From contig JANTGJ010000005.1 of NCBI GenBank assembly GCA_024762975.1, positions 1-55,365 on the forward strand: a stretch of 55,365 nt of DNA, in the 5' to 3' direction. The translations under genes were made by a program, and so were the position numbers. The notes below the pieces were generated by a model. It did not search any database. It worked only from the letters and a program-made list of their open reading frames with translations, and was not told the DNA's origin. Position 1 is the stretch's first letter. Each line of letters starts with the position of its first letter. The DNA comes from Candidatus Krumholzibacteriia bacterium (GTDB lineage: Bacteria; Krumholzibacteriota; Krumholzibacteriia; LZORAL124-64-63). Below are positions 5,688 to 55,365 of this stretch, piece by piece.

Positions 5688-5703
5688 GCAATGAGCGTGC
5701 CAG
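5688..5703 (-). promoter_or_regulatory. Sigma-54 (RpoN) -24/-12 promoter of the TPR gene
   Basis: Minus strand CTGGCACGCTCATTGC matches YTGGCACG-N4-TTGC, about 80 nt upstream of ATG 5606. Confidence 0.7.
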
Positions 5704-5933: not shown

Positions 5934-5961
5934 TTGACACGGCCCCCGGCTCTGTTACTTT
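5934..5961 (+). promoter_or_regulatory. Sigma70-type promoter of the nuo operon
   Basis: TTGACA (5934-5939), 16 nt spacer, TACTTT (5956-5961) with an extended TGn -10 element. Confidence 0.6.
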
Positions 5962-6073
5962 TGCAACAAAACGGCTTCGAAAAATCGCAGATCATTCCGC
6001 AGTACCCACGATCTGTTCTTTCTCGAGCCTTGAATTTGTCGTTCTGAACGTTCAGCCCCCGCAGGGAGCCTGC

Positions 6074-6984: not shown

Positions 6985-7057
6985 GCCGCGCGATGATCCA
7001 GCACGCGTTTGAACCCTCTTCAGCGAACGGAGCCCCGGGGGCCCGCCGCAGGGACGG

Positions 7058-8785: not shown

Positions 8786-8828
8786 TTCGATGGACGGCAG
8801 GCGGGAAAGGTTCGCCAAGGAGAACGCG

Positions 8829-9371
8829 ATGAAGAATTCGCAGCAAGTGAAGCAGGATTTCCAGGCGACCCCGGAGACGGAGTCGCGGATTGAAAAACTG
8901 ATTCAGCAGTACCCGACCAAGGCCAGTGCGCTGATGTCCTGCCTGTGGGCGATCATGGACCAGGAGGGCTGGGTTTCGAGTGACGCGGTCGATTACCTGA
9001 CCGAGCGCCTCGAGGTCACCCGGGCCCGGGTCTACGAGATCCTGACCTTCTATACCATGTACCGCACCGAGCCGCAGGCGGACCACGTGTTGCAGGTCTG
9101 CCACAATATCAGCTGCCACATCATGGGGGCGCGAAACATCATCGCACACCTGGAAAAGCGGCTGGGAGTGCGCCTGGGCGAGACTACGCCTGACGGCAAG
9201 TTCGCCATCGAGGGAGCGGAGTGTCTGGGGGCGTGCGGCCACGGGCCGTGTCTGCAGTTGGGCAAACACCTGTACGAAAATCTGACCGCTGCGAAAGTCG
9301 ACGACCTGTTGGAGAACCTGCGTCGGGACGAGGTGCCGCGCGCGGACACCGACCGGGAACTGGAGGACTAA
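8829..9371 (+). CDS. nuoE: NADH-quinone oxidoreductase subunit E
   Basis: TFYTMY, VCHNISC, ECLGAC (N1a ligands); AAGGAG RBS before ATG 8829. Confidence 0.95.
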   Translation: MKNSQQVKQDFQATPETESRIEKLIQQYPTKASALMSCLWAIMDQEGWVSSDAVDYLTERLEVTRARVYEILTFYTMYRTEPQADHVLQVCHNISCHIMGARNIIAHLEKRLGVRLGETTPDGKFAIEGAECLGACGHGPCLQLGKHLYENLTAAKVDDLLENLRRDEVPRADTDRELED

Positions 9372-9372
9372 G

Positions 9373-10677
9373 TTGAGCCGCAACGATACACGGATCCTCT
9401 CGCAACGCTTCGGACGCAAGGACAGCCACAAGCTGAGCGTTTACGAGGCCGAGGGAGGCTACAAAGCCCTGCGTAAGGTGCTGCAGGAGATGCAGCCGGC
9501 GGAGGTGCGCGAAGAGGTCAAGGCCTCCGGCCTGCGCGGTCGCGGGGGGGCGGGCTTCCCGACCGGAGTCAAATGGGGCTTTGTGCCCCAGGACGCCGAG
9601 GAAATTTACTTCTTCGTCAACGCGGACGAGTCCGAGCCGGGAACCTTCAAGGATCGCTACTGTCTGGACTACGATCCGCACCAGACGATCGAAGGCACGA
9701 TCATCAGTTGCTTTGCCGTGCGGGCCCGAACGGCCTTCATCTACATTCGCGGCGAGTTCGGCTGGCTGGTCGATCGAGTTCAGAAGGCTGTCGACGAAGC
9801 CTACGCCGCAGGGTTCCTGGGCAAGAACATCCTGGGCAGTGGGTACGACCTGGAAATGATCGTCCATAAGGGCGCGGGTGCCTATATCTGCGGCGAAGAG
9901 ACCGGTCTGATCAATTCGGTTACCGGGAAGAAAGGCCAGCCCTCGTTGAAGCCGCCGTTCCCTGCGGTCTCGGGTTTCCTGGGCAAGCCGACCATCGTCA
10001 ACAACGTCGAGTCCGTCGCTACGGTTCCCTGGATCATCAATCACGGCGCTGCCGCCTACCAGGAATTCGGCACCGAGAAATCCCGCGGCACGAAACTGTT
10101 CTCGGTCAGCGGACCGGTCAGGAATCCGGGAGTTTTCGAGATCCCCCTGGGTATGCCCTTCCGCGAGTTTTTCCATGATGTTCTCGGTGGCATGATCGAC
10201 GGTGAAGAGCTCAAGGCGGTCATCGTCGGCGGCAGCTCGGTGCCGGTGCTGCCGGCGGCTGAAGTGATGAATATCAATCTGGACTACGAATCGACTTCAC
10301 AGGCGGGAACGATGCTGGGCTCGGGCGGGATGATCATCATTCCCGAGAGCAGCGACATGGTCGAATTGATCCAGGTATTGATGCACTTCTATTTCGATGA
10401 ATCGTGCGGACAGTGCACGCCGTGTCGAGAGGGAACGGGGTGGTTGCACAAGATCGTCAAGCGGCTGCGCGGGGGGAAGGGTACGCTCGATGACCTCGAG
10501 CTCCTGGAGCATGTCTGCAGCGGCATGGCGGGGCTGACCATCTGTCCACTGGCCGATGCCGCAGTGATGCCGATGCGCAGTTTCCTCGACAAGTTCCGCC
10601 CCGAGTTCGAAGCCCTCATCCAGGAGACCGCGACGGCCGGCGCTACGAGCCGCTGGCCGCGGGGTGAGCAGGAGTGA
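9373..10677 (+). CDS. nuoF: NADH-quinone oxidoreductase subunit F
   Basis: SGLRGRGGAGFPTGVKW, NADESEPGTFKDR, GAGAYICGEETGL, ESCGQCTPCREG; TTG start. Confidence 0.97.
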   Translation: MSRNDTRILSQRFGRKDSHKLSVYEAEGGYKALRKVLQEMQPAEVREEVKASGLRGRGGAGFPTGVKWGFVPQDAEEIYFFVNADESEPGTFKDRYCLDYDPHQTIEGTIISCFAVRARTAFIYIRGEFGWLVDRVQKAVDEAYAAGFLGKNILGSGYDLEMIVHKGAGAYICGEETGLINSVTGKKGQPSLKPPFPAVSGFLGKPTIVNNVESVATVPWIINHGAAAYQEFGTEKSRGTKLFSVSGPVRNPGVFEIPLGMPFREFFHDVLGGMIDGEELKAVIVGGSSVPVLPAAEVMNINLDYESTSQAGTMLGSGGMIIIPESSDMVELIQVLMHFYFDESCGQCTPCREGTGWLHKIVKRLRGGKGTLDDLELLEHVCSGMAGLTICPLADAAVMPMRSFLDKFRPEFEALIQETATAGATSRWPRGEQE

Positions 10678-36293: not shown

Positions 36294-36458
36294 CTTCAAG
36301 CCAACCTCTTCCAGAATCTGGATCCTCTTCCGGCCGCCCCCGATCCATTGTGATCTGTGGGTTATTTCTTTATGGTACCTATTGATCCATCAGGTGGATG
36401 GTGCCGTCGGTTCGCTCCCGTTTTCCCATTGGTTTCGCAAGGTTTGAGGAGGCGATTC

Positions 36459-36647
36459 ATGCTGGATCCGAAGTTGCTCGAAATTCTCGCGTGTCCCGTT
36501 TGCCGGCAGTCGGTCGAAGCCGACGAGAAGCAGGAGTGGCTGTTGTGCCGCAAATGCTCGGTACGGTACCGTGTCGAGGGTGACATCCCCATCATGTTGC
36601 CTGAAGAAGCCGAGAAGATTCCCGGTCCCCATCGTGAGGGAGAGTAG
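36459..36647 (+). CDS. Trm112/YcaR family small protein
   Basis: MLDPKLLEILACPVC...LLCRKC..RY.V..DIPIML.EEA; GAGGAGG RBS. Confidence 0.92.
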   Translation: MLDPKLLEILACPVCRQSVEADEKQEWLLCRKCSVRYRVEGDIPIMLPEEAEKIPGPHREGE

Positions 36648-36653
36648 CGGACC

Positions 36654-39600
36654 ATGTGTCTTTTCACTCATTTTGCCGCGGGAGCGTTGACCGGTGCCGC
36701 GACCGGAAATGTGGGCTGGGCGGCCGTGGCCGGAACCGCGTCGCACGCCGTACTGGATGCGATTCCTCATTACGACCACCCCGATTGGCGGGTCGAATTG
36801 GCGGGGGGAGTTGCCGCACTGCTGTTGCTGCTGCTGATGCCCTTTGTCAGTCCCGCTGCCGTAGTGGGGGGGATCTGCGGCATGCTGCCCGATCTGGAAA
36901 ATTTGTTTCAAAAGTTGGGGTGGATGGACCGGAAACGACGTATTTACCCTTCCCACAACGGTTGGGTCCCGCACGGGCGTTCGTTGGGTCCTCGTGCGAT
37001 TCTGTGGCAGTTCGCAATTTTTGCCGCCTGTTTCCTCGCCCTCGGGCTATTCAACCCGGGAACAGCTCTGGCCGCTGCCGGAACCGATGTCGCGCGGATG
37101 GACCGCCCGCGGGTGACGGTGGTCAGTGGCGACCGGGATCAAACGGTGCTGCGTCTGGATTTCCCCGTACTGCAGATGCCGACGGACTGGGACCGGATTT
37201 CTGTCGAGCAGGTCGACTTTGCGTTGCCGTCCACGATCGAGGAATCCGTGCCGGAGCAGGTCGAGATTCTGCCGCCGCGGATGTTCGTCAGTGTGGCCAT
37301 CCCGTCGAGAAAAGCCCCGCAGGTCGAAGTACTGGGCGCCCGTTGGTGGAAGGAGCCGCTGGCGGAGGTGGCAACCGACGACCTGGTTTCGTTCTCTCTT
37401 CCTTCCGTGTACCGATCCGTTCCCATCAGTGGCGCACGGATTCCTCTGGCCGCCCGGGGTGGTGTTCTGCGATCGCTCACCGTACGCCTGGATCACCAAG
37501 CCGACTCGCGCTGGCTGGCAGAGGAATCGGCAGCCAAATCCTTGACCGAACCCGCCACGAGAACCTGGCGGGAGACGCCGCCCATGGGGCTGGCCAATCG
37601 CTCTCTGTTCGAACAGATGCGGGACACTTCGCGTCGCGCTTCCCTGGCGCGTGTGGCACAGAAATCATCGTTGCCCGAGTTGTTTTTTCTGACCGATCAC
37701 TGGGCGCGGTTGGAGATCGACGAAACCGGGGTCTATTCGGTGTCCGGACAGGACCTGCATCTGGCCGGCGTGACCAATACCTCGGTCCATCCCGCGTCGT
37801 TGCGACTGTATCGGGGGGGCGGATTGTCCCTGATGGCCGACCCGAGTGCCCCGGATTCGTTGCAAGCCGATCGCATCGGCTTGAATGAGGTCGCCATCGA
37901 GGTCCTGGGCGCTGAGGATGGCGAGTGGAACCTGGATGACGAGCTGCATTTCTACGGCGTAGCTACCAGTGCCTGGAGTGATCGCCTGGGCGCCTCGCCC
38001 GACCCGCTCGAACACTATGATCATCCGTACGCCGCGCAGGCAGTCTACTGGTTGACCTGGGATTCTACTGCCGTTTCTCCCTTGCCCGGCAGCCCGCGGC
38101 GCCTGGTAACCGATGCCGCAACGCCCCGCGGGAGCGAGATCCTCTCCACGGCACGGTTGCGTGGGCACCATGAACAACAGTTGCATTCGGACATCGGCCG
38201 GGTCGCGGACGATTTCGTCTGGTACAACGCGATCAACGCCAGCGTGACGGAGAATTTCAATCTTCCGGGAGTCGTGGCCGATTCCAGTGCCTTCTTCGTC
38301 GTGGACTGGCGCGGCGTGACGGACGAGAATTCGAGTCGCTACGACACCGCCGAAGCAGCCGCCTGGGCCAATGGTTCCCTCGCCACGCGGGTGGCGACCG
38401 GGTTTGCGATCACCGCCCAGGAGGATAGCCTGCGCGTCCGCCTGGCAGGACCGTTCACGCCTCTGGCAGACCAGCCCAACAGCATCAGCCTGCAGCGTAC
38501 CGGGGGCGATGGTGACCTCTGCCTGGACAGTTTCGATATCCTGTATTGGGCGGATCTGGACCTGCGGGTGCTCCCGGGCCAAACCGAGATCCCGATCTGG
38601 GCCGAGACCTCGACTGCCGACCAGGCCGATCTGGTCGTGGCCCCGCCGGCGGGGCAGCAGGTCCGGTTGTGGAATGTCACGGATCCCTCGACTCCGCGTG
38701 CATTGACCGGCGCGGCCTCGGGCGCCTACACCGGACGGACTGGATTCGGAATCGACCTGCCGCCCGGGCAGCACACCTATTTTGTCGCCTTCACATCGGA
38801 ACGGATGCTGGATGTCGGGCCGATCCAGGTGAGCAGTCCCGACCCGATCCGGTTGGACCCGAAGGGGGTGGACTATCTGGTCATCTACCCCGGAGAGTTT
38901 GCGCCGGCGGCCCGTGCGCTGGCCGACTTCCGCTCCACGATGCTGCCGGATACCGATTCGCCGGTGGCGGCGAGTTACAACGTGCAGGAGATCTACAACA
39001 ACTTCTCCGGTGGACAGAAGGACTGGCGCGCCATCCGCAACTTCATGCGCTATGTATACCAGAATGGTGGACAGCGTCTGCGGTACGTCTGTCTGATCGG
39101 CAACGCGTGCCGGGACTACCGCAATTACCTGGGGCGTACGCCGCAGGTCGATCTGTACTACGACTTCCTTCCTACTGAAGTACGCACCCCGTTCCCGGAC
39201 AATCCGACCTACGACCTCAGGGAATCGCCCTACGCGACGGACGACGGGCTGGTGTCTTTCGATCCTCCGGCCCTGCTGGATGTCGATTATCCCGATGTCG
39301 CCGTGGGCCGATTGCCGGCCGTGAACCTGGCCGAGGCCGAGTTGATGGTGGCCAACACCATCGCCTACGAGACCGAGACGGAGCCGGGCGCATGGCGCGA
39401 TCGGATCCTGATGGTGGCAGACGACACCCATAAGCGCGGCGTGATCCCCTACTCGGGAGAGCACAAGCATACGGTCGAGGCCGAGATGCTTTGCGAGAAT
39501 CTGGTTCCCACATCGATCGACGCCGTAAAGATCTACGCCGTTGCCTATGATCTGCCGCCCGGTAGTACCAACAAGCCCGAGGTTCGGGCCGATATCAACA

Positions 39601-41078
39601 TCGGTTTGAATGAGGGCACCACGATCTACCACTATATCGGCCATGGATCGCAGGACAGCCTTGCCGATGAGCGGATTTTCGAGATCGAGGACATCCCGGC
39701 ATTGACCAACGGAATGAAACGGGGCCTGTTCGTGGCCTTCAGCTGCGACGTGGGCGTATACGACAGCACGAATCGGCGTTCGATGGGCGAGGTCTTCCTG
39801 ACCAGCGACGCCGGCGGCGCGATCGGGTCGATCACCGCCAGCCAGGTCAGTTACAGCACCGAGAACGATGTGCTGACCAACGCCTTCTACCGGGAGCTGT
39901 TCCCGGACCGTGAAGTGGATCTGACGCAGGGTATCGGACAGGCCCTGCAGCGCGCGAAGGCGGAGATGTACTACTTCAACGCGCGTCGGAATTCCCAGCG
40001 CTACAACCTGATGGGCGACCCGGCCCTGGTGCTGCCGCACCCGCGCAATGATCTGCAATTCGCTTCCGACAGCCTGGATTCCCTGATGACCGGCAGACGG
40101 CACCAGGTGCGTCTGGGAGAGGCCGGCGACCTGCTGATGCCCGAAGCCGGGGACAGTTACGACCTGCGGGTGGAAGAGTCATCGGTCACCCGATACTACG
40201 AATTCGTCTACTATCCGAACCCGGATTCCCTGCTGAGCTACGTCGAACGTGGCGAAGCCGTTTTCCGGGGTACGGGGACCGCCGACGGGGACCAACTGGC
40301 CGTGGATTTCATGGTACCCAAGCAGATGCGCTTTGGTCCGGATGCCCGCGTTCGGATGGTCCTGACGACTCCCGAGGGAGAGCACGCCGCGGAGGTCCGG
40401 GTGCCGGCCGTCCGCTCGCCGCCGACGGCGAATGAAGATGTCCACGGGCCGAGCATCGAACTGGCGTTCGCTGACCACCTGCAGAGTGTCCGCTCCGGGG
40501 CCCTGCTCGAGGCGCAACTGAGCGATCCGAGCGGGATCGCGATTCTCGGGACCAGTCCCATCACGAGCATTCTGCTGGAGTTCGATGAGACGGGATTCAT
40601 GACCGATATCACGCCGTCCTTCCGCTACGATCCGGACAGTTATACGACCGGCCGGATCGGCATGGCCCTGCCCGCGGACATGGAACCCGGAGAACATGTG
40701 GTTTCGTTGTATGCGGCGGATGCGTTGGGAAATGTCGGCAGTGATACGCTGTCCTTCCGGATCCAGGATGAAATCACGACGGGCATCGCTTCGGTGGCGC
40801 TTTTTCCTAATCCGACCCACGGCCCCTGCCGATTGGTATTCGATCTCGGAGAACCGATGCACCTGCGGTGGGACATCTACACACTGGCGGGACATTGCAT
40901 CCGTACGATCGAGGCCGATTTCGAGGAGGCCGGGCGTTCCCAGATCGAGTGGAACGGGCGGGACGACCAGTCGGACGAGATCGCCAATGGTACCTATCTA
41001 TATGTGCTGAGAGGACGAAGCGCGAGCGATCCGGAACACCCATTCCACCATACGGGCAAACTCGTGCTCATGAGATAG
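36654..41078 (+). CDS. porU: PorU-like C25 (gingipain-family) T9SS sortase with N-terminal membrane domain and C-terminal FlgD-Ig-like sorting domain
   Basis: IDETGVY, HPY....VYWL, DYLVIYP, EIYNNFSGG.KD..AIRNF, VGRLP, catalytic YIGHG and FSCDVG, YNLMGDPA; CTD FPNP...DIYTLAG..IRTI...WNGRD...ANGTYLY...GKLVLMR; directly upstream of a PorV-like gene. Confidence 0.85.
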   Translation: MCLFTHFAAGALTGAATGNVGWAAVAGTASHAVLDAIPHYDHPDWRVELAGGVAALLLLLLMPFVSPAAVVGGICGMLPDLENLFQKLGWMDRKRRIYPSHNGWVPHGRSLGPRAILWQFAIFAACFLALGLFNPGTALAAAGTDVARMDRPRVTVVSGDRDQTVLRLDFPVLQMPTDWDRISVEQVDFALPSTIEESVPEQVEILPPRMFVSVAIPSRKAPQVEVLGARWWKEPLAEVATDDLVSFSLPSVYRSVPISGARIPLAARGGVLRSLTVRLDHQADSRWLAEESAAKSLTEPATRTWRETPPMGLANRSLFEQMRDTSRRASLARVAQKSSLPELFFLTDHWARLEIDETGVYSVSGQDLHLAGVTNTSVHPASLRLYRGGGLSLMADPSAPDSLQADRIGLNEVAIEVLGAEDGEWNLDDELHFYGVATSAWSDRLGASPDPLEHYDHPYAAQAVYWLTWDSTAVSPLPGSPRRLVTDAATPRGSEILSTARLRGHHEQQLHSDIGRVADDFVWYNAINASVTENFNLPGVVADSSAFFVVDWRGVTDENSSRYDTAEAAAWANGSLATRVATGFAITAQEDSLRVRLAGPFTPLADQPNSISLQRTGGDGDLCLDSFDILYWADLDLRVLPGQTEIPIWAETSTADQADLVVAPPAGQQVRLWNVTDPSTPRALTGAASGAYTGRTGFGIDLPPGQHTYFVAFTSERMLDVGPIQVSSPDPIRLDPKGVDYLVIYPGEFAPAARALADFRSTMLPDTDSPVAASYNVQEIYNNFSGGQKDWRAIRNFMRYVYQNGGQRLRYVCLIGNACRDYRNYLGRTPQVDLYYDFLPTEVRTPFPDNPTYDLRESPYATDDGLVSFDPPALLDVDYPDVAVGRLPAVNLAEAELMVANTIAYETETEPGAWRDRILMVADDTHKRGVIPYSGEHKHTVEAEMLCENLVPTSIDAVKIYAVAYDLPPGSTNKPEVRADINIGLNEGTTIYHYIGHGSQDSLADERIFEIEDIPALTNGMKRGLFVAFSCDVGVYDSTNRRSMGEVFLTSDAGGAIGSITASQVSYSTENDVLTNAFYRELFPDREVDLTQGIGQALQRAKAEMYYFNARRNSQRYNLMGDPALVLPHPRNDLQFASDSLDSLMTGRRHQVRLGEAGDLLMPEAGDSYDLRVEESSVTRYYEFVYYPNPDSLLSYVERGEAVFRGTGTADGDQLAVDFMVPKQMRFGPDARVRMVLTTPEGEHAAEVRVPAVRSPPTANEDVHGPSIELAFADHLQSVRSGALLEAQLSDPSGIAILGTSPITSILLEFDETGFMTDITPSFRYDPDSYTTGRIGMALPADMEPGEHVVSLYAADALGNVGSDTLSFRIQDEITTGIASVALFPNPTHGPCRLVFDLGEPMHLRWDIYTLAGHCIRTIEADFEEAGRSQIEWNGRDDQSDEIANGTYLYVLRGRSASDPEHPFHHTGKLVLMR

Positions 41079-41138: not shown

Positions 41139-42170
41139 ATGAGCAGGAAAATCATGATGGCGGCCCTCGGCGCGCTGATGATCTGCGGTCTGGCACAGGA
41201 GGCCACGGCCGGCGCCGGCGCCGGTGCCATTGATCTGACCTTTCCCGTCGGCGCGCGCTACAACGCCATGGGCGAGGCCGGCGTAGCCCTGTCCCAGGAT
41301 GCGACGGCGCTGTGGTGGAATACGGGGGGGCTGGCTTTCCTGCCGACCCGGGCGCGCAACAAGGACGTGCAGATGATGACGTCGAAACTGGCCGAGGGCC
41401 TGGCCGACGACATCCGTCTGACCTGGTTCGGCGCTGCCCGCCCGCTGGGCGATATCGGTGCGATCGGAGCCAGTATCAACTATCTCGACATGGGCTCCCA
41501 GATGGGCGTGAACGAGGACAATCAGGAAACGGGTGAGTTTGCCTCGTACATGTTCTCGGTCACCGCAGGCTATGGGGTCCGTATTGCGCGGACTTTGGGT
41601 GTCGGTGTCGCGATCAAGTATTTCCGCGACGATCTTGCACCCGATCAGACGATTCAGGACGGTGTTGCGGGCGGTGGCAGCGGTGACAGCTTCGGTGTGG
41701 ATTTCGGCGCCCTGTGGAAGATTCCGCAGCTCAAGTCGATGGTCGGCATCTCCGTGGCCAACCTCGGCCCGGACATTACACACGTCGACGCGGCCCAGAG
41801 CGATCCGATGCCCCGGAAGGTAACCGTGGGCGGGGCGATCAGTCTGGTCAACAGCGAGTACGGCGGAGTCCTGATGGTGGCGGACATGCTCGTGCCGCTC
41901 TACAAGTGGAAAGGCAATGACTACGCGATCGGGTTGGAATTCGACCAGAAGGAATACGGAGCGGGCTTCGAGGCCAACTACGACTACTCGCTCTTCCTGA
42001 GGCTGGGTTACAAGAACGCCAGTTACGGTGACATTGCCGATCTGACCTATGGCATGGGTGTGGATCTGGAGAAGTGGACCGGCCGGGCCTTTGTCTTCGA
42101 TTTCGCCTGGGTTCCCCAGGCCGAGGGACTGCCCCATGTCTCGCGCCTGTCGGCCGGATATCGATTCTAG
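41139..42170 (+). CDS. porV: PorV/PorQ-family outer membrane beta-barrel
   Basis: Signal peptide; PVGARYNAMGEAGVA..DATALWWN.GGL, SINYLD.G, FGVDFG.L, S.ANLGP, LRLGY, C-terminal SAGYRF. Confidence 0.85.
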   Translation: MSRKIMMAALGALMICGLAQEATAGAGAGAIDLTFPVGARYNAMGEAGVALSQDATALWWNTGGLAFLPTRARNKDVQMMTSKLAEGLADDIRLTWFGAARPLGDIGAIGASINYLDMGSQMGVNEDNQETGEFASYMFSVTAGYGVRIARTLGVGVAIKYFRDDLAPDQTIQDGVAGGGSGDSFGVDFGALWKIPQLKSMVGISVANLGPDITHVDAAQSDPMPRKVTVGGAISLVNSEYGGVLMVADMLVPLYKWKGNDYAIGLEFDQKEYGAGFEANYDYSLFLRLGYKNASYGDIADLTYGMGVDLEKWTGRAFVFDFAWVPQAEGLPHVSRLSAGYRF

Positions 42171-42338: not shown

Positions 42339-45300
42339 ATGGAATTGATCTCCAGGTCATTGAATTCCGACCGGAAGCAGCGGTCTGCACGGCGCATCAC
42401 GCGCCTGGGCTGGTGGTTTTGGATCGCGGGCGCGCTGGTGCTTGCGTGGACTACTCCCGTCACGGCGCAGCCGGACGGGGACGATCACGGCCACTCCTAT
42501 GAACACGTCCCGGTCTGGGGCCGGGGGCTGGAAGATCTGAAGATCCTTCCGGATGGGCAGGAACGCATCGACGCCGAGCTGCACCGGCAGGGAAAGTATG
42601 CCGAACGCTGGCGTGAGATCCATGAACTGCTCGGAGCGAGCCATGTCTCGCACAAGGGACAGGCGTTGCTGGAACGGCGGGGCCTGGGCAGGGCTTTGCT
42701 TCGGAAAACTCCGGGAGCGCCGGTCGCGGACAAATCGGGGGAACCGGATCGCCTGCGGGTGCTCATCGTCCGTATTTCGTTCGAGGAAAATCGACTGCCG
42801 AATCTGACGACGATTCCCGCCGACGGCGATTTCATGCTCGATCCGTTGGAGGAACCGGGACCGATCGAAGTGGATCCGCCGCCGCATGATCGAGCCTATT
42901 TCCAGGCCCACCTGCAAGGACTTTCCGAGTACTACCAGTACCAGTCCGGCGGCCGTTTGATCATCGAGGGGGACGTGCTGCCGCACGATCCCCATGGCTC
43001 CTACAAGCTGGGCGACATTGCCGACTATGGCCCGGGCGAGGGCCGTAGCTGGGGCGATGGATACCTGGATGATCTCGAGCGCCTGGTTCATGACATGATC
43101 GCCGTGACCGACTCGACGACCCAAGCCAACGGCACGGTCAATCTGGCCGAGTACGATGACGACAATGATTTCACGTACGTGATCTTCGTGCACTCGGGCA
43201 GTGACTGGCAGAGCGACGTGAACGGCGACTCGCCGAACGACATTCCGACCTTCTTCATCACCCTCGGCGAGCCCGTGGAATTGCTGGGTACGGATCCCGA
43301 GACGCAGACACGCGGCCTGTTGGGCGAAGTCTCGGTCATCCCCGAGACCACCAACCAGGATGGCTACCCGGGCAGTATCGCCGCCGCTCTGTATCATGAA
43401 TTCGGCCACGCCCTGGGTCTGGTGGATGTCTACAATACGGAATATGGCACACCCAATGCGGGCATCTGGGATCTGATGGATTCGGGCACGAACCTGCCGG
43501 TGACCCTGGGTGATATTTCCGACACGGGAGATACCACGATCGTTACGGCCGTCGGGGTTCTGCCGCCCTCGCTGGGAGTGTGGAACAAGTGGTTCCTGGG
43601 CTGGCTCGAGATGGGCGAAGTCGACGGCCGGTCCGGAAGCTACTACCTGCCGCCGGTCTGGGTGCCGCGCGAACAATACGGCAATTACGGGCTGAATACG
43701 AGTTGGCCGCAAGCCCTGCGTGCCGGGATCTCGCCGCGTGAATTCTTCCTGTTGGAAAACCGCTGGGTGCCCGATTTGACGACCGAGGAGGTGCCGTTCA
43801 ACCAGGTATTCTTCAGCCGTGATCCGGACACTCAGGTGATCCTCTTCCTGGGGGGCGAGTGGGGCGGTACCGAGGGCAACACCGGCATGTATGACTACTT
43901 CCTGCCGCCGGGTGGGGTCCTTGTCTGGCATGTGAACCAGGATCGCATCGAAGCGGGCCTGGCCGACAATACCATCAACACCGAATGGGACGGACTCCGT
44001 CTGGTCGAAGCGGACGGGATCGAGGATATCGGAGTCCTGGATTCGTTCGTGTTGGGCTGGTATGGAACCTCCAACGATCCCTTCGCCGAGCACAATGGAT
44101 TCCAGAACCTGTATGTCGACGGCTATCCGAACTCGCGCGCGTTTGATCGTTCGTGGACCGGACTGCAGTTGAGCGACGTGCGGCAGAATGGTCTGCGCAG
44201 CGCCAAGACGATGCGCTTCGAAGCGACGATCCACCACGGGGTTCCCGGCTTTCCCTGGGAAGCGGCGCCGATCGATTCGGTCGAAGCCGAGAGCACTGAT
44301 GGTTTCGAGGGACCGCGCGGAATCGATCCGACCTCGTTGACGGTGGCGAGCATCAACGGTAGCGATGTACTGGTCTTTGCCGATCAGGCGCCCGATACAC
44401 TGACCGGCCAGGGTCTGCCTGCCTATGACCACTTCCCGACCGCGCTCTACGCGTTGCGGACCGACGGGCATCCGGCTCTGCCGCTGCTGGCCGATCGTCC
44501 GGTGGGGGCTTTCCTGACCCTGGAGGCGCCGCTGGCCGGACCGCCGACCTTTACCATGCCTGAGGGTGGGCCCTCGTTGCTCCAGTTCGGGACGAAGCAG
44601 GGGATGGCCCATAGCTTCTACCTGTTGTACGGAGCCGCACCGGTCGAGCGTTGGAGTACCTCGGCGGGGGATACCCTGCTGCACGCACTTCTGCCGTTGA
44701 CCGTCAACGAAGGTCAGTTCGGCTGGCTGGCTGCCACCGAGGGGGTGTTGCGGATCCTGGCCGACAGTGACGGTTCGCCACTTCCGGAGTCCTACAACTA
44801 CACCGATGTTGTTTTCGACCCGGCTTTCGCCGGGCCGAACGAGCTCGTGTGTGCTCCGCAGATCCTGTCTTTCGGAGATGGCAGCGACCAGATCGCCGCG
44901 ATCACCCAGGCGGGTTGGCTGCGGATTCGACCCGGTCTCAACACGATTTCGGACGTCCATCCCTTCGCTCGTTTCCCGCTCGAAGCACCGGTCTATGCGG
45001 CGGTGCTTCCCGACGGCGACGATCTGCAGTTGCACGTATTCGATGCGCGCGGCGATGTGGGCGCGTGGGAGTTGGGACCGGACGGTTCGGTGCGCGAAAT
45101 GGAAGACCGGCTCGATTTCTCGGACCCACTCGTGACCGCCCCGGCGGTAGCCGATGTCGATGGCGACGGACGGCACGACCTGGTATTGGCCACGGCGACC
45201 CGCATCAGCGCATTCGGACCGAGCGGTACCGGTGCGGTCGGTTATCCACTGGCCTTGCGCGATCTGTTCCCGTTGGCGGACAGCACTCGCGTCCGCGGCC

Positions 45301-45962
45301 CGTTGATCGTGGCCGATGCGACCGGCGATGGAGTCGGTGAAGTATTTTTCCAAACCAGTGGGGGCCATCTGTTCGGCATTGCGCCAGGTGGGCGACTGCT
45401 GCCCGAAACGCCCCTGCGCTGGGCGGATCGCAAGGATGCCGGATTTGTCGTCGGCAGCAGCGCTGTAGAAGGGGAGCGGGCGCTCTGGATGGCCACGCCG
45501 GGGGGCTATACGGGACCGCCCCTGGACCGTGGCTACGTCAATGGCCGCATCATGGGGTTCGATCTGGGACCGGCGGCGCCGCCGAACGAGAGATCGAGCG
45601 AGTGGTTGGGCCTGTACGGCGGATCCGCTCGCTCGGGTGTCGTCGGAACACCACAGGGAATCGAGGTCGCCGGTCTTCAGCAACCGGAACAGACGGGTGC
45701 CTACTTCTATCCCAATCCCTTGCGGGATGATACCGTGACCTTGCGTTTCTACGGACAGGGAACCGGCCAGGGCCTGTTCACGCTGCACACGCTGGAGGGC
45801 GAAGAGGTCACTCGCCGCGAGTTCCAGGTTGACGAGGGAATCGTCAATGAGCTCGAGATTTCTCTGCCGCGGATTGCCAGCGGCATGTACATCGGCCGGC
45901 TCCTGGCTCCGAGTGGATCCGGCACCGAAACCACGACCTTGACCCTGGCTGTCGAACGGTAG
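42339..45962 (+). CDS. M6 (immune inhibitor A-like) metalloprotease with FG-GAP repeats and T9SS-type C-terminal domain
   Basis: Signal peptide; IFVHSG, HEFGHALGLVD, WDLMD.G, EFFLLENR, GVLVWH; ADVDGDGRHDLV and ADATGDGVGEV repeats; CTD YPNP...IASGMYI. TTG 42345 is an alternative start with better SD spacing. Confidence 0.8.
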   Translation: MELISRSLNSDRKQRSARRITRLGWWFWIAGALVLAWTTPVTAQPDGDDHGHSYEHVPVWGRGLEDLKILPDGQERIDAELHRQGKYAERWREIHELLGASHVSHKGQALLERRGLGRALLRKTPGAPVADKSGEPDRLRVLIVRISFEENRLPNLTTIPADGDFMLDPLEEPGPIEVDPPPHDRAYFQAHLQGLSEYYQYQSGGRLIIEGDVLPHDPHGSYKLGDIADYGPGEGRSWGDGYLDDLERLVHDMIAVTDSTTQANGTVNLAEYDDDNDFTYVIFVHSGSDWQSDVNGDSPNDIPTFFITLGEPVELLGTDPETQTRGLLGEVSVIPETTNQDGYPGSIAAALYHEFGHALGLVDVYNTEYGTPNAGIWDLMDSGTNLPVTLGDISDTGDTTIVTAVGVLPPSLGVWNKWFLGWLEMGEVDGRSGSYYLPPVWVPREQYGNYGLNTSWPQALRAGISPREFFLLENRWVPDLTTEEVPFNQVFFSRDPDTQVILFLGGEWGGTEGNTGMYDYFLPPGGVLVWHVNQDRIEAGLADNTINTEWDGLRLVEADGIEDIGVLDSFVLGWYGTSNDPFAEHNGFQNLYVDGYPNSRAFDRSWTGLQLSDVRQNGLRSAKTMRFEATIHHGVPGFPWEAAPIDSVEAESTDGFEGPRGIDPTSLTVASINGSDVLVFADQAPDTLTGQGLPAYDHFPTALYALRTDGHPALPLLADRPVGAFLTLEAPLAGPPTFTMPEGGPSLLQFGTKQGMAHSFYLLYGAAPVERWSTSAGDTLLHALLPLTVNEGQFGWLAATEGVLRILADSDGSPLPESYNYTDVVFDPAFAGPNELVCAPQILSFGDGSDQIAAITQAGWLRIRPGLNTISDVHPFARFPLEAPVYAAVLPDGDDLQLHVFDARGDVGAWELGPDGSVREMEDRLDFSDPLVTAPAVADVDGDGRHDLVLATATRISAFGPSGTGAVGYPLALRDLFPLADSTRVRGPLIVADATGDGVGEVFFQTSGGHLFGIAPGGRLLPETPLRWADRKDAGFVVGSSAVEGERALWMATPGGYTGPPLDRGYVNGRIMGFDLGPAAPPNERSSEWLGLYGGSARSGVVGTPQGIEVAGLQQPEQTGAYFYPNPLRDDTVTLRFYGQGTGQGLFTLHTLEGEEVTRREFQVDEGIVNELEISLPRIASGMYIGRLLAPSGSGTETTTLTLAVER

Positions 45963-45988: not shown

Positions 45989-46972
45989 ATGATTTGTGGA
46001 ACGAACCGAATGATGCTGTGTGGGGTGCTGGTGCTTCTTGCGGCCGTGGCCGCTCCGGCCGCGCGAGCTGACACCGGCGACACCATCCAATCGCGCGCAG
46101 CGTGGATGCTGGACCGCATGGCCGACGGGTCGTTGGATGCGGCCACCGGCCGCGCCCTGCAGCGCGATGAATTCGGCAGCAACATCGCTCCGGTTGTCCC
46201 GCAGGAAGAGGGACCCCGTGGCATCAAGAGTTCTCCCTGGTTGATGCTGGCTTCGGCCATTGTGCCGGGTTCGGGCGAACTGGCGATGGGCCACTGGATT
46301 CGGGGTTCGGCGCTTCTGGCGGCAGATGCCTTCAGCTGGTATCAGTGGAAGGACGCGGGACAGGAAGGCGACGACCTGGAAGATGAATACTACGAGTTCG
46401 CCGATGCCCATTGGTCCGAAGAGAATCTCTTTGAAGGCTATTTCGCCTCGAGTACCGATCTGATGCGCGGCGGAGTCGGCCTGGTCTACTTCGACCTGTC
46501 CGATGAGGACGGAAATCCCATTTCGCAGATGACCAGCGTCGATGATCTGCACTACCTGTCGCTGTGGGTGAGTACCGAGGACGATCGGCGCGAATATTAT
46601 GAGAATCTGGGCAAATGGGACCAGTTCGTCTTCGGTTGGGATGACTTCCGCAACCCGAATGCGCCTCCGGCAGGGATCGAATACACCCCGGACCTGACCC
46701 TGAGCGATCTGCGTCAGCCGTGGACCTCGAAGAATCGTGAGGCCTATCGGGATCTACGCGAAAAGTCGAATGATGCCTTCAAGCGCCAGGACCGCTACCT
46801 GTACGTCAGCCTCGGACTGCGTGTTTTCAGCCTCCTGGAGGTCGCTTATCTGCAGGGATGGCTCGGTGGTGGCGAGAAGGACGCTGTCGAGGTCGCCGGA
46901 CACGAAGTTCGTCTGCTGGCAACGCCCAATACCGGAGGCCAGGGGCTCCTGGGAGCACAACTCTCATTCTGA
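45989..46972 (+). CDS. Exported hypothetical protein (DUF5683-like SxxxPGxG motif), C-terminal Phe
   Basis: Signal peptide; SAIVPGSGEL, EYYENLGKWDQFVFGWDD; ends GAQLSF; GGGAGG RBS. Confidence 0.7.
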   Translation: MICGTNRMMLCGVLVLLAAVAAPAARADTGDTIQSRAAWMLDRMADGSLDAATGRALQRDEFGSNIAPVVPQEEGPRGIKSSPWLMLASAIVPGSGELAMGHWIRGSALLAADAFSWYQWKDAGQEGDDLEDEYYEFADAHWSEENLFEGYFASSTDLMRGGVGLVYFDLSDEDGNPISQMTSVDDLHYLSLWVSTEDDRREYYENLGKWDQFVFGWDDFRNPNAPPAGIEYTPDLTLSDLRQPWTSKNREAYRDLREKSNDAFKRQDRYLYVSLGLRVFSLLEVAYLQGWLGGGEKDAVEVAGHEVRLLATPNTGGQGLLGAQLSF

Positions 46973-47011
46973 TCACAACGGGCCCGGTCGTTACCGGGAC
47001 GGGAGGCTGTT

Positions 47012-47863
47012 TTGAAGATTTCATCGAGTTACGCCGTGGCTGGAGTGGTCGGCGTCCTGGTCGGACTGATGCTGCCGGTGCTGGCTGCCGGCGCGGCGCC
47101 GACGGACTCGTTTCTGCGCAGTGAATACGAGGTGATGGGTGCATCCGCCTCGAACACGGCAGCCGGCGTGTTGGCCGCGGACCGGGAACCTCAACGCGAC
47201 CGCAGCGGCCGCAAGAGCGAGTTCGATGTCGGCGGCGACGAAGACCACGAATCCCAGGGCGGCGATCGCCAACTGGGCCGGAAGGTCAAAGCGACGCTGC
47301 TGTCCGCCGTCCTGCCCGGTGCCGGACAATGGTACAACGGCGACCGCAACAAGGCCTATTGGATGGGCGGCATCGAGGTCGGCATCTGGGGTGCTTTCCT
47401 CGTTTTCGACCATCAGGGCGACAGCTGGAAAGATTCGGCCACGGACTACGCCGGCATCTACGCCGGAACCGAAGGCGAGCACAATGACGCCTACTGGATC
47501 ACCGTCGGATCGTTCTCCGATAGCGATCGCTACGACGACAGTCGGCGCCGTGAGGCCCGGGCGCTGCAGGAACCGTATCCGGACCCGACCAGCGCCGCGG
47601 ATTCTTGGCAATGGGTGAATGATCAGCGTCGCCAGGAGTTCTGGCGTTTGTGGGGTGACGCCCACGATTCCTACGATCGTCGGGACTACATGTACATCGC
47701 TGCGCTGATCAATCGCGTCGTCTCGATGGTGGACGCCGCGCTGGGAGTCGATCGCGTCGACGGTTCGCTGGAAACGAGTGTGCTGGGACTGGACATGCGT
47801 CTGGCCGTCGATCCCGGTCTGCGGGAACCCCGTGCCCGCTGGTCTTTCGCCCGGAGCTTCTGA
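47012..47863 (+). CDS. Exported hypothetical protein (DUF5683-like), apparent paralog of the previous gene
   Basis: TTG start after GGAGG; signal peptide; SAVLPGAGQWYNG, WQW, NRVVSMVDA; ends WSFARSF. Confidence 0.7.
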   Translation: MKISSSYAVAGVVGVLVGLMLPVLAAGAAPTDSFLRSEYEVMGASASNTAAGVLAADREPQRDRSGRKSEFDVGGDEDHESQGGDRQLGRKVKATLLSAVLPGAGQWYNGDRNKAYWMGGIEVGIWGAFLVFDHQGDSWKDSATDYAGIYAGTEGEHNDAYWITVGSFSDSDRYDDSRRREARALQEPYPDPTSAADSWQWVNDQRRQEFWRLWGDAHDSYDRRDYMYIAALINRVVSMVDAALGVDRVDGSLETSVLGLDMRLAVDPGLREPRARWSFARSF

Positions 47864-48882
47864 TGGGGACGGGGCGCCGGCTTCCCCTCCGTCCGCTCCT
47901 GCGGCTGATCGCGTGCGCCCTGCTGATTCCCTGTGTTGCCGGACTCACCGCCTGCGTGGTTCCCGCTCCCGAATCCTCGCGATTGGCGGCGGGGCCTGCG
48001 TTGGCCGGGCGCCACGGCAGTCAGGTCGTGGCTCTCGAGTTCGTGGCCGCCTATGAGAACGACGCCTCCGAACCGTACTACCCTCTCGAACGGCTTGCCG
48101 GTTGCGAATACGCCCCGGACGGAACCCTCATCGTTTGCGATGATTTGCGCGGCAAGGTGCATGGTCAGGATCCGCGAACGCTGCGCTGGTTCGAATTCGA
48201 CACTCCCTATGGCGGTGGATTCCAACCGGTCGATGTGCGCGTCGACGGGTTTCGGGTTCTCGTGCTGGATCAGGGCGGCGGAGCGATTCATCACCTCGAC
48301 CTGTCGGGAGCCTATCGGGACGAATTGGTCGATGTCCGACAGTTGGACCCGGGGGCCGTGGTGCAGCCGACCTCCTTCGATATCGACCGCGACGGGCGCA
48401 TGGTGATCGCCGATGCCGGTCAGCAGGAAGTCCTCTTGCTCGACACCTTCCTGAGCTTGCATACCCGCGTCGGTGGGCCCGGTCCCCTGGATGACCAATT
48501 CCAGTTCCCGGCCGGAATCGTTTTTCGGGACGACGGCAGTTTCGTCGTGGCAGACCGGGGCAACAGTCGCCTGGCCCTGTACGGCCGCAACGGTTTCTTC
48601 GAACGCAGTGTGGGAGGCTCATTCGATCCGGTTGCCATGCTTTCGGCTCCCGGGGGTGTGGACCAGGATCGACATGGCAATCTTTTCGTCGCGGACCCGG
48701 GGTCGAGCCTGATCCACATTTTCGATGCCGCTCTTCGGCCGGTTTTCAGTGCCGGCCGCGAGTTCACTCCCGAAGGCACTCCGCTGGCGCCGGTCGACGT
48801 GGCGGTCGGGCCGGATGGGCAACTGGCGGTCACCGACCGGGCCCGCTCGGCGATCCTGGTGTACCGCATCATCTACCAGTGA
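47863..48882 (+). CDS. NHL-repeat beta-propeller lipoprotein
   Basis: Lipobox LTA-C; repeats QPVDVRVD, PTSFDIDRDG..VIAD, FQFPAGI...VVADRGN.R, P.GV..D..GNLFVAD, PVDVAV; TGATG coupling. Confidence 0.8.
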   Translation: MGTGRRLPLRPLLRLIACALLIPCVAGLTACVVPAPESSRLAAGPALAGRHGSQVVALEFVAAYENDASEPYYPLERLAGCEYAPDGTLIVCDDLRGKVHGQDPRTLRWFEFDTPYGGGFQPVDVRVDGFRVLVLDQGGGAIHHLDLSGAYRDELVDVRQLDPGAVVQPTSFDIDRDGRMVIADAGQQEVLLLDTFLSLHTRVGGPGPLDDQFQFPAGIVFRDDGSFVVADRGNSRLALYGRNGFFERSVGGSFDPVAMLSAPGGVDQDRHGNLFVADPGSSLIHIFDAALRPVFSAGREFTPEGTPLAPVDVAVGPDGQLAVTDRARSAILVYRIIYQ

Positions 48883-51800
48883 GGGCCCCCCCGGCGCTCC
48901 TGTTTCTCCTGGGCGCTGTGGTGCTCACTACCTGTCTGTGCGTGGGGATTCCTGCCCACGCGTCGGATGGTCCTCTGGCCGACGAACGCGAAATCCACCT
49001 CCTGGAAGCTGGTACCCAACCGCTGAAACTCGCTCACGGATTGATCGACCGTACCGATGTGGCGGTGTACGTGGATGGTCGGCGCTGGCTTCTGGATGAG
49101 GATTTCCAGCTCCAAAGCCGCAGCGGAAGGATTCAGCCCCTGCGCGATTGGCACTCCGACCGGGATGCGAAATCTCCGGACGAGTCCGCCCTGGTCATCG
49201 TAATCTACCGATTCCACCCTGTGGCGCTGTTGCCGCGCATCGATTTGCGACCAACGATGTCGCCGCCGAAAGCGGTCAGTGGTTTCATCCATTCGGGCGG
49301 TATCTCGCCGGACCCCGGACCGCTGACGGCCGGGATGTCCGGTGCCTCCGATCTGACGGTTCGCGGCAGCAAGTCGGTGCAGGTCTCGTCCGGCAGTCGG
49401 CGTGAAATGACGGTCGATCAGAATCTGCGTCTGGATATCAGCGGCAGCCTGACGCCCGAAATCGCGGTACGTGCCTTCATGACCGACGACAATTTGCCGG
49501 TGGTGCCGGAAGGAAACACGGAAGAACTGCGTGACATCGACAAAGTGTTGGTGGAGATCCAGGGTCCGGCGTGGCGCGCGACGCTGGGAGATTTCGTGGC
49601 GCGTCGCGAGGGATCGGTGTTCGGCCGCTACCGGCGCAAACTGCAGGGGATCTCGTTGGCAGCGGATCCGGGCGCTGCCCGGCTGGAAGTCCTGGCCGGT
49701 TCGCCTCGCGGTCGCTACCGCAGCCTGCAGGTGCAGGGGCAGGAGTCCAATCAGGGGCCCTACTACCTGGGCGCAGATGCCGGCGCCGAGAACCTGTTCA
49801 TCGTCGCCGGGAGCGAACGGGTCACCCTGGACGGCACGCCACTGGTCCGCGGGGCCGACCGCGACTACGTCATCGACTACCTGCGCGGCTCGGTGACCTT
49901 CACCTACCGCCGCCTGATTACCGCCGAATCCAATATCGTGGTTGAATTCGAACAGGGCGAGGGTGCCTATTCGCGCACGGTCCTGGGAGGGGGCGGCGGC
50001 GCACATGCGGTGGCTTCCCGCTGGAGAATCCCGTTCGACCTCTCCGTCCGGGTCGTTCGCGAGAAGGATGATCCCGGACGCCTGCGAACCGGGGAGTTGA
50101 GTGATCAGGATGAGGCGACCCTGGCGGCCGCGGGCGATGATCCGCGACGCGCCGTAGCTTCGGGAATCACCGAAACGGCAGTCGGCGAGGGGTTGTATTC
50201 CCGCCAGGTTACGGCGGGAGATACGATCTATGTTTTCCAGGAGAACGGAGAATACAATCTCCAGTTCTACTACGCCGGCGGTGGGCTGGGAGACTACGAA
50301 CTGTTGCGGTTGGACGAGTTGGGGCGCCGCGTCTTTGCTTACCGGGGCGAGGGTCTGGGCGCGTATCGCATCGGACGGCCGTTGGAGCGGCCGGAGTCGC
50401 AGAGTCTGGCCACTCTGGTCGGAAGCGTGGGCGACTCGACAGGATCGAATCTGCAAGCCGAATGGAATGTTTCCTCGGTCGACCGGAATCTGCTCTCCTC
50501 TGCGGACGACGGCGACAATTCCGGAGGCGCCGGCCGCCTGAGTGGACACCTCGCTGCGCAGGATCTCGCCGTTGGCGGTCGAAATCTGGGTCGAGTGTCC
50601 TCCGACATTTTTCTGGAGACCCGGCAGAGCCGCTTTCGGCCGTTCGAGTTGCGTCGCAATCGCTTCGACTACGAACGGTGGGGGCTCGGGGATCGCGCCC
50701 GGCGCGATGGGTTTTTGGAGGAATTCGACCGGGAATTGGGCTGGGACGGCCGATGGGAAGCCGGTTCCGATCGACGGCGAGCGTCGCTGACCGGTCGCCT
50801 GGGCAGTCTGGACCACGGTGTTTCGCTCGAGGCCGGGCAGTGGGCCGTCGATAGCGAGTGGCAATGGGGCGGCGCGCGCGGTCGCCACCGCGAACAGCGG
50901 GCCACGGCTTCCGACCGTGTCGAACCGCTGGATATCCGGAGGGAGAATCGTGCGCATGAAATCGCGTGGTCCATCGGACCGGTCGTTCCCTCCGCCCGCT
51001 GGAAGCGCTCCCAGTGGCGCGACGAAGCCCGGTCCCCGGAAACCGCGGCGGGCTATCGCCTCTCCGAATTCGGATATGGAATGAGTTCGGCTGCAAGCGG
51101 AGGTCTGGCCTGGCGTGCGGATTTTGCCCGGGCGCTGGCTGATTCCCTGTACGACGGGACCTGGCGGCGGGAGCGTGACAGCAGAACCCTGCAGGGAGGA
51201 GTGACGACCGGCAGATGGTGGGGTATGCGCTGGGTCGGTGAGGGTACCTGGCGCCGCACGGTGCGCCCGGCAGGCCAGGAGGAATCGACACGCCTGGGCC
51301 GCCTGGATCTTTCCGGAGTCTGGCCTCATCTGCACAGCGACTGGTCCGTCGGCTACCGACTGGATAACAGTCGAGCCCGGGTGCTGGATCGCCAAATCGT
51401 CTACATCGGACTTCAACAGGGCGATTACGATCAGGAAGGGCGCTATCTGGGCATCGATCAGGGAGACTACGATGTCCTCCTGGCCGCTACCGATTCGCTC
51501 GTCGCCACGACGGCGGTACAGACGGACCTGCGCTGGCGACAGGGGTTCGGCTTTCTGGGAAAGGATCGCTGGACCGGCGCCTGGACCGCGGTAACCCGCG
51601 CAACCGTGCAGGGACGCAGTACGACCGAACGGATCCGCGAGCTGTTGCTGCTCCAGCGGGGGGTCCTGTTCGATCGGGATCAGACGGTGCTGACCGAGAT
51701 CCGATTCTCCGAGGAGATGATCGTTCTGCAGCACCTGAAACGTTGGGATCTGCGGGGGCGCTTTGATTACGAGGAAGCTCTGGACCGGCAGTTCTCCCAG

Positions 51801-52302
51801 CATCCGGAGGATCGGGTTCGGCGCGGGTACCTCCTGAATTCCACCTGGACGGCATCGAAGCGCTTCTCCCTGCGTGGGCGGTGGCAGTTGGAAGACGACC
51901 GACGATCTTCGGACGAGAGTCTGGCCAGCGTTCGGCGCAGCTACTCCGTCACGACCCGCACGCACGAACTGGGCGGTGTGTTTCGTGCCTCGGCGGCCAG
52001 TCGAATGTCACTGCAGGGCGAGTATCTGCTACGCGATGATGCCGTTACCGGGGTCGAACAAACCGAATATGCGCTGCGCCCCGAAACCCGTCTGCGTCTT
52101 TCGGGATCGTGGAGCCTGCAGGGCCTGCTGCGAGTCGCGGAGGTGGATTCGCGTGGCGCAAGCGTGTTCGCCCGGCCGTGGTTCTTTCCCGAGCCCGGCC
52201 GCAACGTCGAGTCTTCGCTCCGGCTGAGCTGGGAGCCGACGCGATACCTGACGGTGGCCGGCAACTGGTTTGCCCGCAAACGTGGCGAGGGGAGGTGGGA
52301 GC

Positions 52303-55365
<3,063 letters not shown>

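Follow-up and report, generated by a model that had tools for sequence, protein, structure and literature searches.

Organization of the locus

The stretch of DNA analyzed here (the window, 55,365 nt) is a contig of a Candidatus Krumholzibacteriia bacterium, and its forward strand encodes PorU, the C25-family sortase of type IX secretion systems (T9SS), joined in frame to an N-terminal membrane domain that we call ND (aa 1-140). The ND-PorU gene, hereafter the fusion, is one open frame of 1474 aa (36654..41078, + strand), stop-free through 41076 in the open reading frame (ORF) list and translation. An earlier examination of the letters alone (the sequence-only reading) had noted this unbroken run from ND into the C25 protein, and our comparison with other genomes shows that the fusion is real, old, and under selection. 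The best-supported reading, which we consider probable, is that the product is a precursor cut by signal peptidase I (SPase I) into an inner-membrane protein and an exported PorU. The parts of the fusion, followed by the adjacent genes, are listed below.

36654..37073, + strand: ND, aa 1-140 of the fusion (alignments A1 and A2, AlphaFold2 [AF2] model, dN/dS)
36990..37058, + strand: last ND helix, aa 113-135, with invariant Q119, C126, and P135 (column counts, 30 fusions)
37056..37079, + strand: c-region and predicted SPase I site, P135-G-T-A138-L-A140/A141-A, cut at 37073/37074
37074..41078, + strand: predicted mature PorU, aa 141-1474 plus stop, made up of a variable short linker, a beta-rich domain, and then the NF033707 region
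36357..36647, + strand: Trm112-like small zinc-ribbon gene, 96 aa, directly upstream of the fusion (NCBIfam Trm112_arch, E 3e-09, below the cut-off)
41139..42170, + strand: PorV/PorQ-family outer-membrane gene, directly downstream of the fusion (NF033709, 171.5 bits, cut-off 90)
42339..45962, + strand: M6-like metalloprotease gene, probable T9SS cargo (TIGR03296, 75 bits; NF052323, 156 bits; both under their cut-offs)

The identity of the exported part as PorU was confirmed by NF033707 (499.9 bits against a cut-off of 420), which aligned to aa 347-1472 (37692-41069) over profile positions 4-1094 of 1095; the profile was matched to its last position, C-terminal sorting domain included. Pfam C25 (PF01364) matched aa 741-1127 (38874-40034) with 272.6 bits. 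The catalytic residues proposed from the letters are where they were said to be, with His997 in a GHG motif (39642-39644) and Cys1031 in an SC motif (39744-39746), and the motif Y.GHG was present in 56/56 PorU rows. A confidently predicted beta-rich domain (aa 150-346, 37101..37690) separates the signal from the part matched by the PorU profile; it is common to the split and ND-less Krumholzibacteria PorUs described below, in which NF033707 begins at aa 225-240. The fusion's PorU lacks the usual short N-terminal Sec signal; its hydrophobic helix comes instead after a conserved membrane domain of 112 aa. On one metagenome contig (L140), two full-length PorU-like genes lie in tandem (469..4515 and 5442..9434), with ND preceding the second.

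Conservation of the N-terminal domain

As the sequence-only reading described, the first 140 aa form helices rather than a normal signal peptide, and every motif that it quoted is in place: T5-H6-F7, S30-HAVLDAIPHYD-41, L78-PDLE-82, P99-S-H101, and P106-H-G108, followed directly after the last helix by ...NPGTALA/AAG, with aa 140 ending at base 37073. No Pfam or NCBIfam model matched the first 150 residues at E ≤ 1, except for three chance-level rows. Residues 1-150 were used for a six-frame search of 41 related genomes, 19 of which gave strong matches. Sixteen of the 19 belong to the window's own family (f1; f1 to f9 are the family labels of this analysis), and in these the ND match was 55-74% identical and lay in open frames extending up to 1616 aa; in the other 3, which are from other families, it was ~40% identical and lay in frames of 142-161 aa. 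Other genera have the same 135 aa, again in frame with PorU and 55-74% identical, so the arrangement reflects more than chance. Weak second ND matches (aa 44-105, E ~1e-3) appeared in four genomes (G003, G018, G020, and G023); those inspected, in G020 and G023, were transmembrane segments of transporter-like ORFs and were rejected as spurious.

A profile search of 1.84 billion representative proteins retrieved 777 relatives at E ≤ 0.001, 178 of them at E ≤ 1e-10, so homologs of aa 1-140 with conserved His and Asp exist in the hundreds. Among the 150 relatives listed, the long ones were PorU-sized (or shorter and incomplete), and the rest were 130-170 aa. When the search was limited to proteins longer than ND, at least 100 were listed, all of them ND-C25 fusions or fragments except for one short-contig chimera. 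The public names of the fusion proteins are “hypothetical protein” or “C25 family cysteine peptidase,” and the N-terminal domain is never annotated.

Fifteen positions are invariant in alignment A1 (18 sequences): H6, S30, H31, D35, P38, H39, D41, E48, P79, D80, E82, N83, H101, H107, and Q119. In the broader alignment A2 (101 relatives), G10, H31, D35, H39, P79, D80, and H101 are invariant, and H6, E82, and H107 are kept in ≥90%. We also compared codons 2-118 of the window's ND with those of 42 other fusions. The dN values were 0.17-0.43, and with dS saturated, dN/dS was 0.047-0.233 in 26/42 pairs (dS was not computable in 15). These values indicate purifying selection on ND.

Fused, split, and ND-less forms

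In a phylum sample of 201 genomes, a profile search with ND detected the domain in 96. It was present in 50/86 f1 genomes, every time within a longer open frame, and occurred as a stand-alone protein in 34/42 f3 genomes (frames of 134-205 aa), 7/8 f7 genomes, 3/12 f8 genomes, and the 1/1 f9 genome. The search did not find it in f2 (0/7), f4 (0/23), f5 (0/12), or f6 (0/9). A pattern scan using one genome per species, some of which overlap the phylum sample, yielded 80 loci, all from Krumholzibacteriota-type metagenome-assembled genomes, although some carry other labels. Of these, 32 have a complete fused ORF, 12 have a fused ORF that extends beyond the contig end, and 27 have a stand-alone ND with PorU directly downstream. 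The remainder comprises 6 loci cut by the contig end in or just past ND and 3 odd loci (L059, L061, and L071), in which a stop or frameshift interrupts a fused-type sequence, the break in L071 lying in the linker. In total, there are 45 distinct fused N-termini (the window plus loci L009-L106), all in frame and drawn from many samples and assemblers. Both arrangements for which the sequence-only reading suggested a search of other genomes, the same fusion and adjacent split genes, are thus found in nature. Frameshifts or early stops at ~aa 140-410 were seen in several fused genes on long contigs (L059, L061, and L071 and the proteins P0310 and P0311) and may be due to sequencing error or decay.

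The gene order accA - trm112-like - (ND) - porU - porV is preserved across the class, and a motif of the form L[AV]CPxC lies ≤330 nt upstream of 43/45 fused loci. In the split form, which keeps this order, ND is a separate gene of 134-140 aa that ends right past the last helix, has the same invariant residues, and is 39-46% identical to the ND of the window. The end of ND and the beginning of porU overlap at 27/27 split junctions, where stop and start codon share bases in NTGA (mostly ATGA) or TGATG, an arrangement that points to translational coupling. The split-form PorU carries its own MKR...A-x-A signal peptide, and the two downstream ORFs tested proved to be PorU by NF033707 (557.8 and 562.4 bits).

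Ten genomes lacking ND were examined, half of them from f1 and the others from f2, f4, f5, and f6. The order accA - trm112-like - porU is kept, and the encoded PorU opens with an ordinary signal peptide immediately past the trm112-like gene. This signal peptide aligns onto the last ND helix and c-region of the fusions, and the block that follows the signal (M-x-x-P-x-V-x-V-L...T...FP) is common to the mature PorUs compared.

The junction between ND and PorU

Residues at the junction were counted by column in 30 of the 45 distinct fusions, aligned over 340 aa (A5). The columns for Q119, C126, and P135 (position -6 relative to the predicted cut) hold Q, C, and P, respectively, in 30/30. At A138 (-3), there are 26 A, 2 V, 1 S, and 1 G, so a small residue is present in 30/30; position 139 (-2) is variable, and A140 (-1) is A in 29 and G in 1. 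The +1 column (A141) holds A in 24, Q in 5, and G in 1, and no Pro. The n-region is positive, the R114-type position being R in 21 and K in 4 of the 30 fusions. Past the site, the linker varies in length and sequence, with length differences that are always multiples of three.

All of the sequence features of an SPase I substrate are therefore present: a positive n-region, a hydrophobic core, a helix breaker at -6, and small residues at -3 and -1. From the (-3,-1) pattern and the breaker, an SPase I cut is predicted between A140 and A141 (37073/37074), and we infer that cleavage takes place there. The A-x-A site that had been pointed out after the last helix of the window is thus a feature of the fusions as a group. 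Two SPase I genes above the curated cut-off are encoded in the genome.

Cys126 (37029..37031), which lies mid-way along the last helix, is missing from stand-alone ND and from 3/5 ND-less f1 signal peptides. In the lipobox consensus, [LVI][ASTVI][GAS]C, a G, A, or S stands directly ahead of the Cys. Position 125 is V, F, I, or C in 11/30 fusions, and we rejected Cys126 as the lipobox of a lipoprotein processed by signal peptidase II.

Predicted structure and topology

AF2 modeled ND alone, with a 101-sequence alignment, at a mean pLDDT of 97.1 and a pTM of 0.90. The model has helices at 3-17, 20-35, 45-60, 67-87, and 113-130, plus a short one at 99-102. H6 is at the start of helix 1, H31 and D35 are at the end of helix 2, and H39 and D41 are in the loop that follows it; E48 starts helix 3, D80 and E82 fall in the last third of helix 4, and H101 and H107 lie in the loop before helix 5. 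Given these helix-end positions, all of the conserved His, Asp, and Glu residues lie toward the face that holds the N-terminus. Loop 79-113 averages 5.5 K+R in 42 fusions and 6.9 in 21 split forms, and the two turns on the opposite face have 0-0.2. Since the positive loops are on the conserved face and PorU would have to be exported through helix 5, this face is predicted to be cytoplasmic, with an N-in/C-out topology.

A model of the first 340 aa (pLDDT 89.8, pTM 0.62) kept the bundle and placed a beta-rich domain at 153-280 with a pLDDT of 94-98. The sole stretch with a pLDDT below 50 was 137-142, at the predicted cleavage site.

Proposed processing of the precursor

Under the reading that we favor, ND would be a five-helix inner-membrane protein whose N-terminus stays cytoplasmic upon insertion. 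The last helix, running from inside to outside, would lead the remainder of the chain (PorU) through the Sec translocon, so that this helix would serve as the h-region of the PorU export signal and take over from the normal one. SPase I would then cut past A138-L-A140, whereupon ND, last helix included, would remain in the inner membrane, and PorU would be freed into the periplasm and pass from there to PorV and the cell surface. In the studied system, as described in PMC8545088, PorU works at the cell surface, bound to PorV, and must therefore leave the inner membrane. The fusion probably originated from two translationally coupled genes, the ND stop overlapping the porU start, with the last ND helix merging with PorU's own signal peptide. 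A polyprotein split by SPase I into a hydrolase and a sortase was the central proposal of the sequence-only reading; the split genes and the conserved site make the splitting the best reading, but leave the hydrolase identity of ND doubtful.

Several points weigh against this account. The evidence for cleavage consists of comparison and prediction. The uncharged stretch A114-F133, at ~20 residues, exceeds the usual signal-peptide core, which favors a signal anchor. The cytoplasmic placement of the conserved face derives from the positive-inside rule and from the required export of PorU. ND is missing from 105/201 genomes sampled, yet 10/10 ND-less genomes examined encode PorU; PorU therefore does not need ND and appears to function without it in half of the class. 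Finally, the enzymatic nature of ND is argued from conserved residues and sub-threshold similarity.

The length of the uncharged stretch and the predicted status of the site also speak for an alternative that we regard as unlikely, in which the last helix is an uncleaved signal anchor and PorU stays tethered to the inner membrane via ND, working in the periplasm. The invariant Cys126 and Q119 fit this alternative as well, suggesting that the last helix is a structural part of ND. However, a plain anchor has no need of the Pro at -6, the small residue at -3, or the A/G at -1, each kept in 30/30 fusions, and in ND-less relatives, this position is taken by an ordinary signal of the cleavable type. 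The completeness of the PorU profile through the C-terminal sorting domain, the adjoining porV, and the surface location of PorU in the studied system (PMC8545088) also argue for release, and the cleaved precursor remains our preferred reading.

Relatives and possible function of ND

Structure searches with the ND model gave nothing significant. The best Foldseek match against the PDB had an E value of 1.4, and the best VIA-align match against 48,161 chains had a Z score of 4.2, with none ≥5; the best 50 VIA-align rows included no entry of the Zn-dependent phospholipase C/P1 nuclease fold. In BFVD (viral models), the best match was SpoIVFB (E 0.76, not significant), and the A2 profile had 0 matches at E ≤ 10 among PDB sequences.

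For a Pfam scan, 38 more distant representatives were chosen from the 150 relatives listed. YdjM (PF04307) matched 23/38 at E ≤ 0.1, the best with 24.0 bits (E 3e-05) against a gathering cut-off of 29; DUF4184 matched 6/38, at best with 24.4 bits (cut-off 25); and Zn-dependent phospholipase C (PF00882) matched 6/38 weakly. Among these 38, neither PAP2, a protease, nor any other Pfam family was recurrent. The window's own protein (P0002) had no PF04307 match at E ≤ 1, and a PF04307 scan of 21 genomes found nothing at the ND locus. An hhalign comparison of A2 with A3, a shallow alignment of 19 true YdjM proteins (Neff 1.8), gave a probability of 7.6% and covered 25 N-terminal columns only. The nearest named clusters in the ESM Atlas (query P0052) were YdjM, at 0.77 and 0.76, which is a lead only. 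ND thus seems to resemble the YdjM kind in motif content and yet to be no demonstrable member, and of the YdjM-like hydrolase originally proposed, the likeness of motifs has held, and the family assignment is weakly supported. Our literature search on YdjM as an inner-membrane hydrolase returned no biochemical study by title.

More distant members were collected in a metagenome scan with a distant subfamily alignment (A4), which yielded 72 loci. PorU adjoins ND in 27/72, all Krumholzibacteria-like. The lipid II flippase gene murJ is directly upstream of ND in 7 loci (L130, L131, L133, L135, L137, L146, and L174). In 7 loci, 2 of them also with murJ, spoIIP (and gpr) is nearby (including L127, L132, L134, L136, and L165), and in 4 loci (L161-L163 and L166), the stop of an alkaline-phosphatase-like gene overlaps the ND start. 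These contexts resemble those of spore-forming Firmicutes, and one family member is named from Limnochordia. The wider family is therefore not tied to type IX secretion, and the PorU-coupled ND is one clade of a broader envelope-associated family. The adjacency of murJ is a faint hint toward lipid-linked precursors.

One could suppose that ND itself is a membrane-embedded metalloprotease that releases or matures PorU, processing itself in the fusion and acting in trans when split. The conserved His/Asp/Glu cluster within a membrane bundle and the strict genetic coupling to a protein that needs N-terminal processing would suit such a role. We nonetheless consider it improbable, as the cluster and the predicted cut are on opposite sides, the residues around the cut make up a canonical SPase I site, the searches matched ND to no protease family or fold, and distant relatives occur in non-T9SS contexts.

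That ND binds metal and acts as an enzyme of some kind is a suggestion that we make tentatively, at rather less than even odds, from its conserved residues; we infer that its work is tied to PorU. A more specific proposal is that ND is an undescribed family of five-helix membrane metalloenzymes facing the cytoplasm, acting on lipid-linked envelope precursors and, in Krumholzibacteriia, serving as a dedicated T9SS accessory. There, ND would have the task of preparing or recycling the lipid-linked acceptor to which cargo is joined by PorU, the fusion would lock synthesis at 1:1, and the distant members next to murJ, on spore-former-like contigs, would follow the same theme. Taken as a whole, this proposal is doubtful, and both the enzymatic role and its link to the PorU anchor are conjecture.

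Translation start and history of the fusion

A motif GGAG, GAGG, or AGGA lies 5-18 nt ahead of M1 in 37/45 fused loci. The same Shine-Dalgarno-like motif precedes only 3/97 in-frame ATG, GTG, or TTG codons between codon 85 and the last helix. Start candidates inside the window's ND are the ATG at codon 91 and the TTGs at codons 88 and 111, and a product begun at TTG-111 would open with a textbook signal peptide. PorU could on this basis be made mainly from a start within the ND frame (M91 or L111), the long fusion protein being rare. The ATG at codon 91 (in MDRKRR), which had been raised as a possible main start, is present in just 24/45 fusions and has no ribosome-binding motif, and 3/45 fusions have zero in-frame start codons in the region. 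Moreover, ND is under purifying selection, and in the absence of a stop between the two parts, any ribosome that makes ND continues into PorU. Internal initiation as the main route is accordingly very unlikely.

A FastTree tree was built from 56 PorU sequences, of which 32 came from fused, 14 from split, and 10 from ND-less loci; duplicates were dropped, as were split loci lacking a complete PorU and any fused ORF that was incomplete or <1400 aa. The f1 PorUs formed one clade (support of 100) throughout which the fused forms were spread; four ND-less f1 sequences formed a nested clade, and the fifth stood apart. Thirteen split sequences formed a separate clade (support of 100), the 14th “split” row being L071, the frameshifted fusion. 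An ND tree of 65 rows needed two label changes, the extra one due to L030, a contig-end fragment of a fusion; once it was relabeled, all fused forms fell on one side of a branch. With the root of the tree not fixed, the simplest history would place a single ancient fusion event at the base of f1 or close to it, followed by losses of ND.

A Logan contig of run X1 spans 36400-37400 with 0 differences and 0 gaps and so agrees with the open frame in showing no stop or frameshift between the domains, although it is not independent confirmation because X1 may be the source sample. Run X2 covers just 37269-37400. A second contig of X1 (depth 4.9) at 36650..36790 matches only the most conserved parts of ND and presumably comes from another Krumholzibacteria population of that sample. 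A lost stop, frameshift, or misassembly that fused two genes in one assembly can be rejected even though a few relatives are frameshifted (L059, L061, L071, P0310, and P0311), given 45 distinct in-frame fusions from many samples and assemblers, linkers that vary in multiples of three only, and a contig identical over the junction.

Neighboring genes

The fusion ATG at 36654 lies six bases past the TAG (36645-36647) of the Trm112-like gene and in the same frame; over 36645..36656, the two genes are parted only by this TAG and two codons. For the M6-like gene downstream of the porV-family gene, the best model was “T9SS-dependent M6-like inactivated metalloprotease,” at 156 bits far under its cut-off of 600. 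The HEFGH motif is intact in the translation of 42339..45962, and the protein may therefore be active. Farther on (45989..54153) are an unassigned 327-aa ORF, a DUF5683 protein, an NHL-repeat protein, an 1152-aa ORF, part of which (49800-49955) weakly resembles SprA (31 bits), and an Omp85-family gene; the whole may be a larger cluster concerned with the outer membrane or secretion. The genome also encodes the SprA/Sov translocon. The GldM model TIGR03517 had no match in the genome, and the control was equally silent.

Significance and comparison with known systems

To our knowledge, PorU and type IX secretion have been studied almost exclusively in Bacteroidota. Our literature search, which did not extend to supplements, found nothing on an ND-PorU fusion or on type IX secretion in Krumholzibacteriota. 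The organisms are uncultured, and ND is known from its sequence and predicted fold, not from its chemistry. Even so, ND is an unannotated family whose fold is predicted with very high confidence and has no relative among solved structures, and its strict coupling to porU across roughly half of a candidate phylum makes it a candidate for a new accessory of cargo anchoring. The ND-less, split-and-coupled, and fused forms make up a clean natural series, which illustrates how a polytopic protein's last helix can assume the job of a signal peptide.

ND and the YdjM/YbcI (DUF457, PF04307), DUF4184, and Zn-dependent phospholipase C families are all small helical membrane proteins. ND shares with the YdjM clan an MxxxTHxxxG start, PD(L/I)(D/E) and HxxxD motifs, and repeated weak matches, but the order of the motifs is swapped, with ND 61-89 corresponding to YdjM 11-39 and ND 1-38 to YdjM 61-98. 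The split ND and porU operons of f3, f7, f8, and f9 encode both proteins in the same order and synteny as the fusion; they differ in having two genes, with a 4-nt (or 1-nt) overlap, and a PorU with its own signal peptide.

Like the PorU of Porphyromonas gingivalis, the protein encoded here has a full-length profile match, a C25 domain with the GHG His and SC Cys, a C-terminal sorting domain, and an adjoining porV. Unlike it, the fusion has a five-helix membrane protein of 140 aa in place of a short Sec signal peptide and a beta-rich domain of ~200 aa ahead of the profile start. A comparable arrangement is the FbcH cytochrome b-c1 precursor of Bradyrhizobium japonicum, in which a polytopic inner-membrane protein is fused upstream of a periplasmic protein and leader peptidase cuts at an internal signal, an account that a literature search did not confirm. 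The proteins are unrelated, and whereas the two halves of FbcH stay in one complex, the products of the fusion would end up in different membranes.

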